Of a stretch of DNA of 63,437 nucleotides, positions 34,557-38,795 are shown one piece after another. The stretch covers positions 1-63,437 of the forward strand of contig JABDDE010000005.1 of the NCBI GenBank assembly GCA_013287775.1, read 5' to 3'. The position numbers and the translations under genes are program-made. The notes under the pieces were generated by a model, which saw only the letters and a list, made by a program, of their open reading frames with translations, did not search any database and was not told the DNA's origin. This DNA comes from Chlamydiota bacterium (GTDB lineage Bacteria; Chlamydiota; Chlamydiia; Chlamydiales; FEN-1388). Each line of letters opens with the position of its first letter. Position 1 is the stretch's first letter.

Positions 34557-35009
34557 ATGACACATTCCTATCGGGTACATTTTTACCATTGTATTTGGTC
34601 GACAAAACAACGATGCGCATTCATCATACCTAAAGTGCAAATGCATCTCTACACATACATAAATGGCATTATTACAAATCAATCTGGTAACTTGTTAGAA
34701 ATTGGTGGTATGCCAGATCATGTACATTTATTACTAAAACTAAGCGACGACCAGCAGTATTCTCATTTTATTCGGAACGTGAAAGCCAGTTCTTCATCAT
34801 GGATACATAAAAATTTTCCTGATATGCAAGAGTTTGCTTGGCAAGAAGGATATGGATCTTTTTCTGTGAGTTACTCCGCCCTAAAAACTGTTCAAAATTA
34901 TATACAAAACCAAGAAAAACATCATAAAAATATGACATTCGAACAAGAATATCGGCGTCTCTTGCAATTGCATGACACGCCATATGATGAGCGTTTTGTT
35001 GTTGGATAG
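34557..35009 (+). CDS. tnpA: IS200/IS605-type Y1 HUH transposase flanked by inverted REPs (RAYT-like)
   Basis: WSTKQR, DHVH (HUH), WQEGY, NYIQNQ; no tnpB; REP-A in opposite orientations at 34413-34516 and 35011-35079. Confidence 0.88.
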   Translation: MTHSYRVHFYHCIWSTKQRCAFIIPKVQMHLYTYINGIITNQSGNLLEIGGMPDHVHLLLKLSDDQQYSHFIRNVKASSSSWIHKNFPDMQEFAWQEGYGSFSVSYSALKTVQNYIQNQEKHHKNMTFEQEYRRLLQLHDTPYDERFVVG

Positions 35010-35678: not shown

Positions 35679-36800
35679 TTATTCCACTTCCCTAAGCTTG
35701 CGAGAGGACAACATCCCCCATACCTTACGGCCAATGTTGACTACCGTGAGCACAATGAGCGCAGGATACATAGTCTCCAGGATTGGCCCTAAAAACTGTG
35801 CAATACCAGAAAATTCAAGAGTCGACACAAGAAAAGCCACTATAAGGGTGCTCACTATCGCCGTGGTGTTGCCAATTTTTTCGCGAAAAACCTCTGTACG
35901 CAAAAATTCTGCAAACAGAGAAGTGAGTGCAATAGCCGTTGTCAAACATGCTAACACTACAGCAACGCATATGCAGGGAGCAGCAAAGAAGCCGAGTGAG
36001 GCAATTGCCACCTTGCCAAACATCTCTTGCGGACGAGCACCCTCCAGGAGAGGCGCATAGAACCAGCCAAGTAATACCAGAGCAAAGTATACCACATATA
36101 AGAGCACTGCCCCTACTACTGATGCTTTTATAAAAAATTTTAACGGTGACCCTCCTTCGCCTCGTTCAGAGCGTGTCTGCAACAGGTGTTTGATGACAAA
36201 TCCTGAAAAGAAGAACGCAGCCACCAAATCCATCGTCTGATATCCTTTAAAAAAACCATTTGTAAAGGCCACAAAACCTTCAGACTGCATTGGAGCAGAT
36301 ACTGGAGCCTGATAGAGGCTGACACCGGTAATGCTTGCTACAGCAAGTAATAAAAAGGGCGTAAGGAACACCCCCAAGATCGACACAATCTTGTTTTTAT
36401 TTGCCGTTAACAGATAAATGAGTACGCAGAGTACCAAGCTCGTCACTGGAAGCGACATAGATGGAAACAGTGGAAGACAGGCACCATGAATCACGGTGAG
36501 GCAACGCGCAAGCACTCCAAATGGTCCCATAAGCCCAAGTGCAATAAAAGAAAATATAAATATCCCCTTTTTCCCGAAATAACTAAAAAATTCCTTAATC
36601 TCGCCATTATATAGTGCCATACCCAGCATCCCAAGAAATGGAAAAATCACACAGGTACAGAGCACGCCCAATGAAGCCATACCATAATGGCCTCCACTTT
36701 CCATACCTATCGCTAAGGGGAAGACGAGATTGCCCGATCCGAAGAACATCGAAAAGAGCGCAAACCCCGTGCTTAGTATCAGTAACGTTTCTTTTTTCAT
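35679..36800 (-). CDS. brnQ: Branched-chain amino acid transporter
   Basis: FSMFFGSGNLVFP, GYQTMD, ACLTTAI. Confidence 0.92.
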   Translation of the reverse strand: MKKETLLILSTGFALFSMFFGSGNLVFPLAIGMESGGHYGMASLGVLCTCVIFPFLGMLGMALYNGEIKEFFSYFGKKGIFIFSFIALGLMGPFGVLARCLTVIHGACLPLFPSMSLPVTSLVLCVLIYLLTANKNKIVSILGVFLTPFLLLAVASITGVSLYQAPVSAPMQSEGFVAFTNGFFKGYQTMDLVAAFFFSGFVIKHLLQTRSERGEGGSPLKFFIKASVVGAVLLYVVYFALVLLGWFYAPLLEGARPQEMFGKVAIASLGFFAAPCICVAVVLACLTTAIALTSLFAEFLRTEVFREKIGNTTAIVSTLIVAFLVSTLEFSGIAQFLGPILETMYPALIVLTVVNIGRKVWGMLSSRKLREVE

Positions 36801-36826
36801 AAACCTCCTATAATTTATAACAAAGC

Positions 36827-36862
36827 AAAAAAAAACCGCACCTCTTACGAGAGTGCGGTTTT
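36827..36862 (-). terminator. Intrinsic terminator (attenuator) in the brnQ leader
   Basis: CCGCACTCTC-GTAA-GAGGTGCGG followed by U9, just before the brnQ RBS. Confidence 0.8.
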
Positions 36863-36900
36863 GACTACCACATGAATTGGAATTTGTAGGTAAATACCAA

Positions 36901-36987
36901 TTACATAGGCCCGCACCTCCAAAAGATGTGGCTCATAATAATCTCAACAATGCTCAGAGATATGTAATTGTTAGTACCCATACCCAT
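36901..36987 (-). CDS. Candidate Ile-rich attenuation leader peptide (28 aa)
   Basis: MGMGTNNYISLSIVEIIMSHIFWRCGPM; 5 Ile, 1 Leu, 1 Val; its 3' part can pair with the terminator 5' arm. Confidence 0.65.
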   Translation of the reverse strand: MGMGTNNYISLSIVEIIMSHIFWRCGPM

Positions 36988-37200
36988 ACGGTATCTTAAT
37001 CCTTGTAAATTGGTCATCTCCTAACTTTAGCAGACGACAATGACATTTTATAAAAATTTTAGCACATCTAATTATAATTATGCAAGGAGAAAAAATCAAA
37101 TCAACACTTTATTTCCTGATTGATGAGTAAAAAGAAAACAATACACTGTATGCTACTGCTCGAGCGGAGCTCGGGCAGTAAGCATACAATGTTTATCACC

Positions 37201-38556
37201 TTACAACACGAACCCATCCGGAATGGATGCCCCGCGTGGCACGACAATAACACCATCGCGAATGAAGATATTGTCCCCATCATAGTTTGTGAGGTTATTT
37301 TTGTTGACAAGCTGCACGTTTTTGCCAATGGAGACGTTTTTATCGATAATGGCACTCCGAATAGTACAGCCAGCATCAATACACAGATTTTTAGCTGCAC
37401 CGCCACCCATGTCAGAGGGCGCTGTATAAAAATCATGACCCATAATGTACGAGTCCTGAATCACCGTGTCGCGCTTTATCACAGCACGATGGCCTAAAAG
37501 GGAGTTACAAATCTCCTCGGCCTCAATAATAGTGCCCTCACAGACGATGGAGAGCTTAATTTTGGTATTATAAATTTTTGGGCCTGGCAGGTGGTGGCGA
37601 TTGGTATAGATGGGCTGCAGCTCATTGTAACAGTCAAAAGGCGGCTCAGAGGTGGTAAGCGCCATGTTTGCCTTGTAAAATGAGCCAATCGTGCCAATAT
37701 CTTCCCAGTAGCCATCATGCGCAAAGGCGGCAATGGAGCCACTCTTTACCTTGGTTGGAATCAGGTGTTTGCCAAAATCCTCCCGAGGATCATCTTGGAG
37801 CAGTTTAAAAAGAGCTTGCCGCTTAAAGAGATAGATGCCCATAGAGCCGAGATAGCATTTTTCAGAGTTGCTATCGAGACCCATCTTTTCGAGGGAGGCT
37901 GGAGCGGTCTTGAGCCTATCAAGATCGGCGCGCTCGCTTGGTTTTTCATAAAAATCAATAATGTGATGATCTTCATTGATTTTCATGATCCCCATACGCT
38001 TGGCATCCTGTTCATTGACTGCCAAGGTCGCAACTAATACATCGACATCCTTTTGTATGGCTGTCTGCATCATCTGCCGAAAATCTAAGCGATAGAGCTG
38101 ATCCCCTGAAAGGATTAAAAAGTACTCTGCATTGGTTTCTAAGAGGTATTCCATATTTTGGCGCACAGCATCGGCAGTCCCCAAATACCATGTCGTTCGA
38201 TCCATCTTTTGCTCGGCGCTCAGCACTTCTATAAATCCTGGCGAGAAGGTGCCAAGACGATATGCCTGAAAAATATGCTTGTGCAACGATGATGCCAAAA
38301 ACTGCGTCACTACAAAGATTTTTTGTATGTCGGAGTTTAGGGAATTGGAAATCGGCACATCTATAAGACGATATCTGCCCCCAAAACATATTGCAGGCTT
38401 ACATCGGCTTTTAGTCAATGGATACAACCTCGATCCTTGACCACCACCCAAGATAACACAGGCTACATTACTCATGTTTACTGGCTTTGGAGCTACCGTA
38501 GAGGCTATTTGTGGAGCTACTGTTTTTTTGACGAGAGAAGAAATGATAGTATTCAT
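37201..38556 (-). CDS. glgC: Glucose-1-phosphate adenylyltransferase
   Basis: GGGQGSRLYPLT, KPA, GTADAVRQN, YWEDIGT. Confidence 0.95.
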   Translation of the reverse strand: MNTIISSLVKKTVAPQIASTVAPKPVNMSNVACVILGGGQGSRLYPLTKSRCKPAICFGGRYRLIDVPISNSLNSDIQKIFVVTQFLASSLHKHIFQAYRLGTFSPGFIEVLSAEQKMDRTTWYLGTADAVRQNMEYLLETNAEYFLILSGDQLYRLDFRQMMQTAIQKDVDVLVATLAVNEQDAKRMGIMKINEDHHIIDFYEKPSERADLDRLKTAPASLEKMGLDSNSEKCYLGSMGIYLFKRQALFKLLQDDPREDFGKHLIPTKVKSGSIAAFAHDGYWEDIGTIGSFYKANMALTTSEPPFDCYNELQPIYTNRHHLPGPKIYNTKIKLSIVCEGTIIEAEEICNSLLGHRAVIKRDTVIQDSYIMGHDFYTAPSDMGGGAAKNLCIDAGCTIRSAIIDKNVSIGKNVQLVNKNNLTNYDGDNIFIRDGVIVVPRGASIPDGFVL

Positions 38557-38795
38557 AATTTTATTTTCCTTATTCCCGTCGTATAGCAAATGGGAGGATT
38601 TTGGTAAATTTTTTTTTGTGTGGGAGCCGCGTGTGCGGCCCCCACACAAATGAGTTGGCACGCACCTAGTGTAAAAAAAATAATTTACAAAATAATCAAA
38701 AAATGTTTATATGAAGATATAAAGTAAAAATATAAAATTTGCTCATAGTGTAGAATCCAATTGGTTGTGCACTTAGAGTATAGAGGAGGTTTTTT

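Follow-up and report, generated by a model that had tools for sequence, protein, structure and literature searches.

The window analyzed here, a stretch of 63,437 nucleotides (nt) from a Chlamydiota bacterium (Chlamydiales, FEN-1388; assembly GCA_013287775.1, contig JABDDE010000005.1), carries on one strand the gene glgC followed by brnQ, a gene of the family of branched-chain amino acid (BCAA) transporters. Between the two genes lies a short leader element that ends in a terminator. An earlier note on this DNA, written from the sequence letters, had read the element as a candidate isoleucine-sensing transcription attenuator of brnQ, and it is this candidate attenuator and its relatives in other chlamydiae that we describe here. 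Its parts are listed below in the order of transcription; all coordinates of the attenuator locus refer to the minus strand of the window unless stated otherwise.

37201..38661, minus strand: glgC, with NTP_transferase and LbH_GLGC domains
37071..37099, minus strand: promoter-like site TTGATT-17-TATAAT (a consensus match only, 10 of 12 positions)
36901..36987, minus strand: leader open reading frame (ORF) of 28 codons plus stop, MGMGTNNYISLSIVEIIMSHIFWRCGPM, with ATG at 36987..36985 and TAA at 36903..36901
36925..36963, minus strand: putative regulatory codons, Ile at 36963-61, 36951-49, 36942-40, 36939-37 and 36927-25, Val at 36948-46
36923..36931, minus strand: segment 1 (CCACAUCUU), the predicted anti-antiterminator strand, pairing with segment 2 (the window fold pairs 8 nt of segment 2 upstream)
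36911..36919, minus strand: segment 2, GAGGUGCGG, the predicted 5' strand of the antiterminator, within the last leader codons and resembling a Shine-Dalgarno (SD) sequence
36868..36910, minus strand: inner hairpin (CCUAUGUAA...), which in the fold of the window element holds the last leader codons and the stop and is enclosed by the antiterminator helix
36850..36862, minus strand: segment 3, AAAACCGCACUCU, the 5' arm of the terminator and the partner of either segment 2 or segment 4
36827..36845, minus strand: segment 4, AGAGGUGCGG, plus U9, comprising the terminator 3' arm (36845..36836) and the U-tract (36835..36827)
36827..36964, minus strand: match to the covariance model R1 described below (96.1 bits, E 1.3e-22)
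35679..36800, minus strand: brnQ, 373 amino acids (PF05525 Branch_AA_trans, E 5e-51), with the SD sequence AGGAGG at 36809..36804 and its ATG at 36800

Judging from the promoter-like site, the transcript would probably start near 37064. The leader of 28 codons that the earlier note had picked out before brnQ is indeed present (36987..36901) and contains five Ile codons, two of which (36942-40 and 36939-37) form a tandem AUU AUU; its AUUAUUAU block aligns with the Ile runs found in relatives. The leader frame is open upstream as far as an ATG at 37017, which would give 38 codons, a further in-frame start lies at 36981, and an AAGGA is located 12 nt before the ATG at 36987. The U9 terminator of the note was likewise found (36862..36827). 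Its arms enclose the loop CGUA (36849..36846) in a hairpin of -18.5 kcal/mol (window fold), with one bulged G in the 3' arm, and because of this bulge a simple terminator scan missed it, so that folding was used instead. The U9 tract ends ~27 nt before brnQ. The copy of the terminator 3' arm that the note had seen late in the leader is exact: Segment 2 (GAGGTGCGG, 36919..36911) duplicates the nucleotides at 36844..36836. This 9-mer occurs 3 times in the 63-kb window as compared to 0.21 expected, and none of 100 shuffles contained three copies. The third copy (2967-2975) falls within an ORF and was set aside as incidental. Immediately past the glgC stop, a long near-perfect hairpin (37140-37190, minus strand) is followed by a U-rich stretch; this hairpin is probably the own terminator of glgC.

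Searches with the locus recovered a family of related elements. At the DNA level, the 340-nt region 36801-37140 matched 11 of 41 genomes, the window's own included, with matches that spanned the sequence from the Ile codons through the terminator. The matched intergenic regions carry one copy or two tandem copies of a module, and the gene behind them is brnQ or a gene for a protein of 272 residues that is described below. Each module comprises a short ORF that contains an Ile run and mostly ends in RCGP(M/I)-stop, a small hairpin that surrounds the stop codon, and a terminator with the pattern CCGCAxCUC-loop-GAGxUGCGG-U7-9. From an alignment of 19 copies (A1), we built the covariance model R1, which matched 12 of the 23 genomes of the window's family, spread over 4 of 12 genera. 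An order-wide sample of 151 genomes yielded matches in 33 at E ≤ 0.01 and in 12 at E < 1e-10, the latter in families f1, f6, f17, f20, f33, f37, f42, and f44, while a second sample gave matches at E ≤ 1e-5 in 11 of 151 genomes and added families f31, f7, and f4. Strong R1 matches occur in at least nine chlamydial families. Weak matches in the order-wide sample (E above ~1e-5) mostly covered the terminator half alone and were excluded as members, as was a match in a 1.1-Mb genome (L061) that lacked both an Ile-rich leader and a terminator and had no brnQ in its vicinity. Altogether, 56 R1 matches were reduced to 49 distinct copies (alignment A4).

The distribution of the element is wide but patchy. 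Carriers with BrnQ relatives include Parachlamydiales, Parachlamydiaceae, Protochlamydia, and other unclassified chlamydial metagenome-assembled genomes, and no R1 match was found among the 27 genomes of 1.0-1.2 Mb in family f35, which, judging from genome size, is probably the Chlamydiaceae. A plus-strand R1 match stands directly upstream of brnQ in 25 of 80 loci that encode BrnQ relatives, and among the 36 loci with 49% or more identity to the query, 24 have R1 upstream of brnQ. With its filters off, R1 found nothing below E 0.03 in 28 further chlamydial loci encoding BrnQ relatives, and the upstream regions of those 28 loci showed no convincing alternative leader. The family is not one that Rfam describes: A cmscan of 36000-38000 at E up to 10 returned four chance-level matches, none better than E 0.5 and none to a leader family, and the T-box model gave no match in the same interval at E up to 10. 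In one region (L019:1540-1590, the same region as L008:1540-1590), a single element is followed by a stand-alone second terminator of the same sequence type, which may be the remnant of a lost tandem copy.

The leader ORF is kept throughout the family. In all 49 distinct copies, an ORF of 18-58 codons starts with ATG and terminates 3-16 nt past segment 2, while the other two frames hold only 3 such ORFs in the 49 copies. Ile accounts for 221 of the 1226 leader residues (18%), i.e., 2.5-fold the background of 7.3%, where the relatedness of the copies means that a binomial P for this pooled composition is not a true probability. Leu is depleted in the leaders (4.9% versus 10.3%), Val is near background, and an Ile run of at least two residues is found in 37 of 49 leaders.

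At segment 2, what is conserved is the RNA. One copy, G017a, keeps its ORF through a 1-nt deletion and a compensating 1-nt insertion, so that its tail reads ...HTNGGAGPI while the nucleotides GGAGGUGCGG are unchanged. Segment 2 is read in an unusual frame in 5 of 49 copies (tails GAGPI, KEVRT, ARPGC, VRTYA, and VRIMH), and each of the residues R, C, G, and P of the common tail is substituted somewhere while the nucleotides stay. The reading frame over segment 2 is therefore not fixed, and the conservation there constrains the RNA and not the peptide. The RCGP tail bears a resemblance to the RAGP motif of SecM/TnaC-like arrest peptides. We examined RCGP(M) as a SecM-like arrest peptide and rejected it as a requirement, given that the frame differs in 5 of 49 copies and every residue varies.

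The codons of the leader change with the gene that follows. Most strong matches precede brnQ, and Ile runs (II to IIIII) are found before most brnQ genes. One genome, G009, has Ile-rich leaders before its first brnQ and two tandem Val-rich leaders, ...VRVSVQVIVSH... and ...VLASVVIQAVVVVN..., before its second (L037, contig C14, ~357.3-357.7 kb). Thr-rich leaders, MLFLIGCTVTTTATTQTGGTPKARCGPMC (L055:864-1015, plus strand) and MKLFVTSTATCTATCTAAAVARCGPII (L155, reverse strand, 1438-1521 in reversed coordinates), the latter also Ala-rich, both precede a distinct BrnQ paralogue (PF05525), which suggests that this paralogue may import threonine or a related amino acid. Because E. coli BrnQ takes up threonine, according to the part of the account that we consulted (PMC10070963), such a Thr-controlled BrnQ paralogue is plausible. 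Mixed Val/Leu/Ile leaders precede ilvB in G027, ilvE in G034, and the gene for the protein of 272 amino acids. The occurrence of different codon families on one RNA scaffold speaks for the codons being read as codons.

The genes behind the element form a coherent set. Tandem copies precede the large subunit of a biosynthetic acetolactate synthase (ilvB) at two loci, L044 and L049 (TIGR00118, 533.5 bits for a truncated ORF and 635.7 bits), and a copy at L054 precedes ilvE (TIGR01122, 256.6 bits); a regulon of brnQ, ilvB, and ilvE is what a BCAA sensor would be expected to control. The 272-residue protein is encoded under the same attenuator at L009:1608-2426 (plus strand), with homologues in L002, L007, and L012, and its proximal leaders are rich in Val, Leu, and Ile. 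Its gene follows directly after brnQ in L003, L005, and L008 and is not beside brnQ in the window. Sequence searches against Pfam, NCBIfam, and PDB gave no significant match for this protein, while a resemblance in a protein atlas suggests an ATP-grasp fold of the DcsG/RimK/glutathione-synthetase-like type. In the window, an ORF for an IS200-like Y1 transposase (34557-35009, plus strand; PF01797, E 4e-28) lies just past the 3' end of brnQ, at the place where relatives carry the 272-residue gene. A further strong copy, in genome G204 (L153:1681-2004, plus strand) and with the leader MLIHSIVSRIISRIIVVKIHVKSRCGSMH, precedes an ORF of 108 amino acids that matched no Pfam family.

The alternative pairings can be followed across the 49 copies. 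A4 was fitted to a model that contained the terminator and the four pairs of the CCUA/UAGG inner hairpin, and the helices between segments 2 and 3 (2:3) and between segments 1 and 2 (1:2) were not part of that model. Among the terminator pairs, 94.5% of the cells are paired, and the terminator and inner-hairpin pairs taken together contain 66 cells changed on both sides, a value that none of 500 shuffles reached. For the antiterminator 2:3, 93.0% of the cells are paired, as compared to 31-48% when the partner was slid along the alignment. The inner hairpin CCUA/UAGG is paired in 85.9% of the cells, with three of its four pairs changed on both sides. Segment 1 has the consensus CCACAC(C), and its pairing with segment 2 is present in 85.7% of the cells versus 26-66% when slid; in three copies with a U-to-G variant of segment 2 (GAGGGGCGG), pair 46-65 is C-G, i.e., the variant meets a compensating C. 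Support for the 1:2 helix is weaker than that for the other helices. In the row of the window, the aligned position of the inner hairpin is irregular.

Both states were seen in folds of the copies. By minimum free energy, 48 of 49 copies form the antiterminator when the stretch from segment 2 to segment 3 is folded (-22.2 kcal/mol on average, as compared to -20.5 kcal/mol for the terminator hairpin), whereas the full-length fold contains the terminator in 46 of 49 copies and pairs segment 2 upstream in 44 of 49. In the window element, the two states are close, and one sequence context favors the antiterminator and a longer one the terminator. Full-length folds in which a ribosome is represented by a mask cannot reveal a switch, and nascent-RNA folds were used instead. 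In nascent RNA ending at segment 3 and with the ribosome mask at the BCAA run, the 2:3 helix forms in 41 of 47 copies. The geometry of the leader fits such an arrangement. In 31 of 49 copies, 11-17 nt separate the end of the longest BCAA run from segment 2, so that a ribosome stalled at the run would cover segment 1 and leave segment 2 free. A ribosome that has arrived at the stop would occlude segment 2 and unwind the inner hairpin. The tandem AUU AUU of the window (36942-36937) is positioned in keeping with such a stall.

Taken together, these data make it likely, in our assessment, that the element is a ribosome-mediated leader-peptide transcription attenuator, which would couple brnQ to the supply of charged tRNA-Ile. 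In the proposed mechanism, a ribosome would translate the short leader in a transcript that starts near 37064. When Ile-tRNA is ample, the ribosome would reach the stop at 36903-01, cover segment 2, and open the inner hairpin, upon which segments 3 and 4 would pair and RNA polymerase would terminate at U9 before brnQ. When Ile-tRNA is scarce, the ribosome would stall at AUU AUU or at neighboring Ile codons, covering segment 1 and leaving segment 2 exposed. Segment 2 would then pair with the newly made segment 3, the resulting long antiterminator helix would stack on the inner hairpin, and this structure would pre-empt the terminator and allow transcription of brnQ. If the leader is not translated at all, the 1:2 hairpin could hold segment 2, and termination would follow. 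The data show the sequence elements and their conservation, the alternative pairings, the geometry, and a BCAA-related regulon; from these we infer that the leader is translated, that ribosomes stall at Ile codons, that kinetics decide between 2:3 and 3:4, and in which direction brnQ is regulated. The attenuation of the ilv/leu/trp type suggested in the earlier note agrees with its sequence-level predictions in the window and across the 49 copies (ORF in 49/49, Ile at 18%, 2:3 pairing at 93%, stop position in 49/49, run spacing in 31/49). Segment 1 with its 1:2 hairpin, the tandem copies, and the wider regulon go beyond what that note had described.

A number of observations weigh against this mechanism. 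In the window leader, Ile amounts to 5 of 28 residues (binomial P = 0.049 versus 7.3% in window ORFs of at least 250 codons), so that the enrichment there is by itself marginal, and the window element owes its more-than-chance status to the fact that relatives share it and not to the window alone. The AUC at 36927-25 belongs to segment 1, and a stall at this codon would leave segment 2 partly covered. Close orthologue loci of brnQ are without the element in 12 of 36 cases. Among the Ile codons of the leaders, AUU is over-used (174 of 235 versus 511 of 1054 in the background), which could reflect a constraint at the level of nucleotides. The leader initiation signals are weak, because only 15 of 49 copies have an SD-like 4-mer 3-13 nt upstream of a suitable leader ATG, versus 0.18 at random positions. 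Covariation in the 2:3 helix is thin, with 13 cells changed on both sides and between 5 and 53 of 500 shuffles reaching the observed measures, and this covariation must be read with the caveat that A4 was fitted to the terminator structure; the double changes are few, as both strands hardly vary and a good part of the variation they show is from G-C to G-U. A ribosome mask of 28 nt placed on the BCAA run leaves the terminator favored in 44 of 47 full-length equilibrium folds, and the choice between 2:3 and 3:4 would therefore have to be kinetic, as is accepted for trp. Finally, the support for the attenuator comes from the comparison of sequences throughout; among the public sequencing runs listed for this DNA, seven entries are DNA, one of them possibly from the source sample, and none is RNA.

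Other explanations for the same features can be weighed against the codon-reading attenuator. Segment 2 (GGAGGUG; minus strand, in the region of 36904-36919) is a near-perfect SD sequence that stands ~9 nt before a terminal AUG-stop, and this combination may hold ribosomes. The leader could report general translation capacity rather than isoleucine, or segment 2 could retain a ribosome, serving as a site of start-stop or pausing that makes termination the default, with the Ile codons adding little. Such an arrangement would fit with the SD-like 4-mer that lies within segment 2 in 42 of 49 copies, with the AUG that forms the last codon in 26 of 49 and stands within the last two codons in 33 of 49, and with the scarcity of a classical SD before the leader start (15 of 49). 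We nevertheless consider it improbable, as it leaves aside the 2.5-fold enrichment of Ile at a fixed distance from segment 2 and the change of leader composition with the gene behind (Ile for brnQ; Val/Leu/Ile for ilvB and the ATP-grasp-like gene; Thr for a second BrnQ paralogue), and as the terminal AUG is absent in 16 of 49 copies. The strong preference for AUU among the Ile codons (174 of 235) bears on a different idea as well, in which a protein or a small ligand would act on the AUU-repeat and CCAC region in the manner of TRAP, PyrR, or a riboswitch, and the ORF would be a by-product; in family f1, the AUUAUUAU block and CCAC are moreover conserved as nucleotides. Against this, the ORF, its ATG, and its positioned stop are kept in 49 of 49 copies, once via compensating indels, and on the shared scaffold, leaders rich in GUC/GUG/CUA or in ACA take the place of the AUU block. 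Conservation of the upstream region is otherwise poor, with no aptamer-like structure preserved, and no Rfam family matched. A non-translational switch thus appears highly improbable.

It could further be argued that nothing is switched here, i.e., that an ordinary terminator insulates brnQ from glgC read-through, or that the transcript acts as a stand-alone small RNA (sRNA), with no switching role for the upstream 9-mer. The rnTrpL RNA of Sinorhizobium, a leader with its terminator, reportedly acts as a stand-alone sRNA, and such roles are, in the parts of the literature covered, reported for attenuator transcripts. The window terminator is strong and also scores as a terminator on the plus strand (21.8 bits), and stand-alone terminator copies do occur, such as the extra one after the element in L019. 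Yet glgC has its own hairpin at 37190-37140, the element goes with the downstream gene (brnQ, ilvB, or ilvE) whatever lies upstream, and segment 2 belongs to the best-conserved blocks in the alignment. An sRNA role would, in any case, supplement attenuation and not replace it. We hence regard a mere terminator or sRNA as very unlikely, and favor the ribosome-mediated attenuator.

A more far-reaching view of that attenuator is possible but, in our estimate, doubtful. Here, the element would be a re-programmable scaffold shared across chlamydial families, in which segments 2, 3, and 4 are near-invariant and the codons exchangeable: Ile for brnQ, Val for a second brnQ, Ile/Val/Leu for ilvB, ilvE, and the ATP-grasp ligase, and Thr/Ala for another BrnQ paralogue. 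Segment 2 would double as an SD-like site ~9 nt before a terminal AUG-stop and thereby set termination as the default, tandem copies would sharpen the response, and the scaffold would serve environmental chlamydiae as the main amino-acid readout of host supply. Chlamydiae are not known to have the usual stringent-response machinery.

The genome of the window also contains a second gene of the BrnQ family (L157, contig C29, locus 1240-1460), which is without attenuator. Upstream of this gene, ~200 nt lie between inverted repeats (GAGAGGTGCTTGCA... / ...TGCAAGCACCTCT), a stretch with the appearance of a small inserted element. This genome, which is only 73% complete, yielded no ilvD (PF00920), and this suggests a possible BCAA auxotrophy of the organism.

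The element can be set beside known regulators. In E. coli and Salmonella, ilvGMEDA (ilvL) and ilvBN (ivbL) are controlled by leader-peptide attenuators with a short leader rich in BCAA codons and mutually exclusive hairpins. The chlamydial element likewise has a BCAA-rich leader, an antiterminator hairpin that excludes the terminator hairpin, and a terminator with a U-tract ahead of the regulated gene, and the copies before chlamydial ilvB carry mixed Ile/Val/Leu leaders as do the multivalent ilv leaders. It differs in that it has no homology to them in sequence or structure (no match to an Rfam leader family), that the window copy controls an importer and not a biosynthetic operon, that it is often tandem, and that it belongs to a different phylum. 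The trp attenuator of E. coli is the classical four-segment model, where the decision is kinetic and depends on the partner that segment 3 meets first. The 1:2/2:3/3:4 logic, a stop placed such that a terminating ribosome blocks 2:3, and a terminator at least as stable as the antiterminator, which makes the choice kinetic, are common to both. The chlamydial codons are, however, Ile instead of Trp, segments 2 and 4 are exact 9-nt copies, and an extra inner hairpin, itself enclosed by the antiterminator, contains the stop.

Outside the Proteobacteria, the ilvBNC leader of Corynebacterium, or ilvB-II upstream-ORF motif, is described in the passages we consulted as a BCAA-responsive upstream ORF with alternative hairpins before ilvB (PMC10272879, PMC11857589). 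It is similar in these respects and dissimilar in sequence family and phylum, and those passages draw no link to brnQ. Transporters of the LIVCS/BrnQ family in Firmicutes are preceded by T-boxes of different specificity, and for 10 chlamydial genomes, the table of the same paper gives a count of 0 T-boxes (Wels et al. 2008; PMC2494555). On that partial account, the regulated gene family, the tRNA-charging signal, and the control of paralogues by different amino acids are alike. The T-box RNA binds tRNA directly, whereas the proposed chlamydial sensor is the translating ribosome, and no T-box matched the locus. In the Salmonella mgtCBR and mgtA leaders, as far as the consulted text goes, leader ORFs likewise govern transcription of transporter genes with more than one attenuator in series (PMC3641672). 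The signals and sequences differ, and the mgtCBR ORFs differ from each other, whereas the chlamydial tandem copies are paralogous repeats of one module.

Within the chlamydiae, the sole proposal of a leader-peptide attenuator that we found is trpL of C. trachomatis trpRBA, a predicted attenuator with a putative leader of 59 residues, the existence of which is described as disputed in the pages we consulted (PMC3937554) and which is also treated in PMC7755916. That proposal concerns Trp and a single pathogen lineage, unlike the present family, which concerns Ile/BCAA, comprises 49 distinct copies, and is found in 0 of 27 small genomes. In the section consulted, Naville and Gautheret (2010; PMC2965389) report that almost no predicted attenuators of the Chlamydiae had an assigned function. 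The chlamydial genome screened by Brewer et al. (2021; PMC8632094) was that of Chlamydia pecorum W73, and the passage of their supplement does not mention brnQ. No account of an attenuator for BCAA or brnQ in chlamydiae came up in our literature searches, in agreement with the earlier note; the full text of subscription journals lay outside these searches, and an earlier description is possible.

Overall, while the mechanism itself is classical, the element is a new RNA family that is widespread in environmental chlamydiae. Little is known about nutrient sensing in these bacteria, and the family offers a cis-regulatory RNA outside Rfam with a codon input that can be read. Being a compact switch of ~130 nt, the element lends itself to reporter tests. 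Its apparent absence from the small genomes searched (0 of 27) limits its medical reach, and the element flags the ATP-grasp-like enzyme of 272 residues as BCAA-related. The composition of the leader provides a handle for predicting the substrates of BrnQ paralogues. In these bacteria, a shortage of isoleucine would probably lead to more BrnQ importer, and the regulon would tie amino-acid import (brnQ) and, where present, BCAA synthesis (ilvB, ilvE) to tRNA charging.

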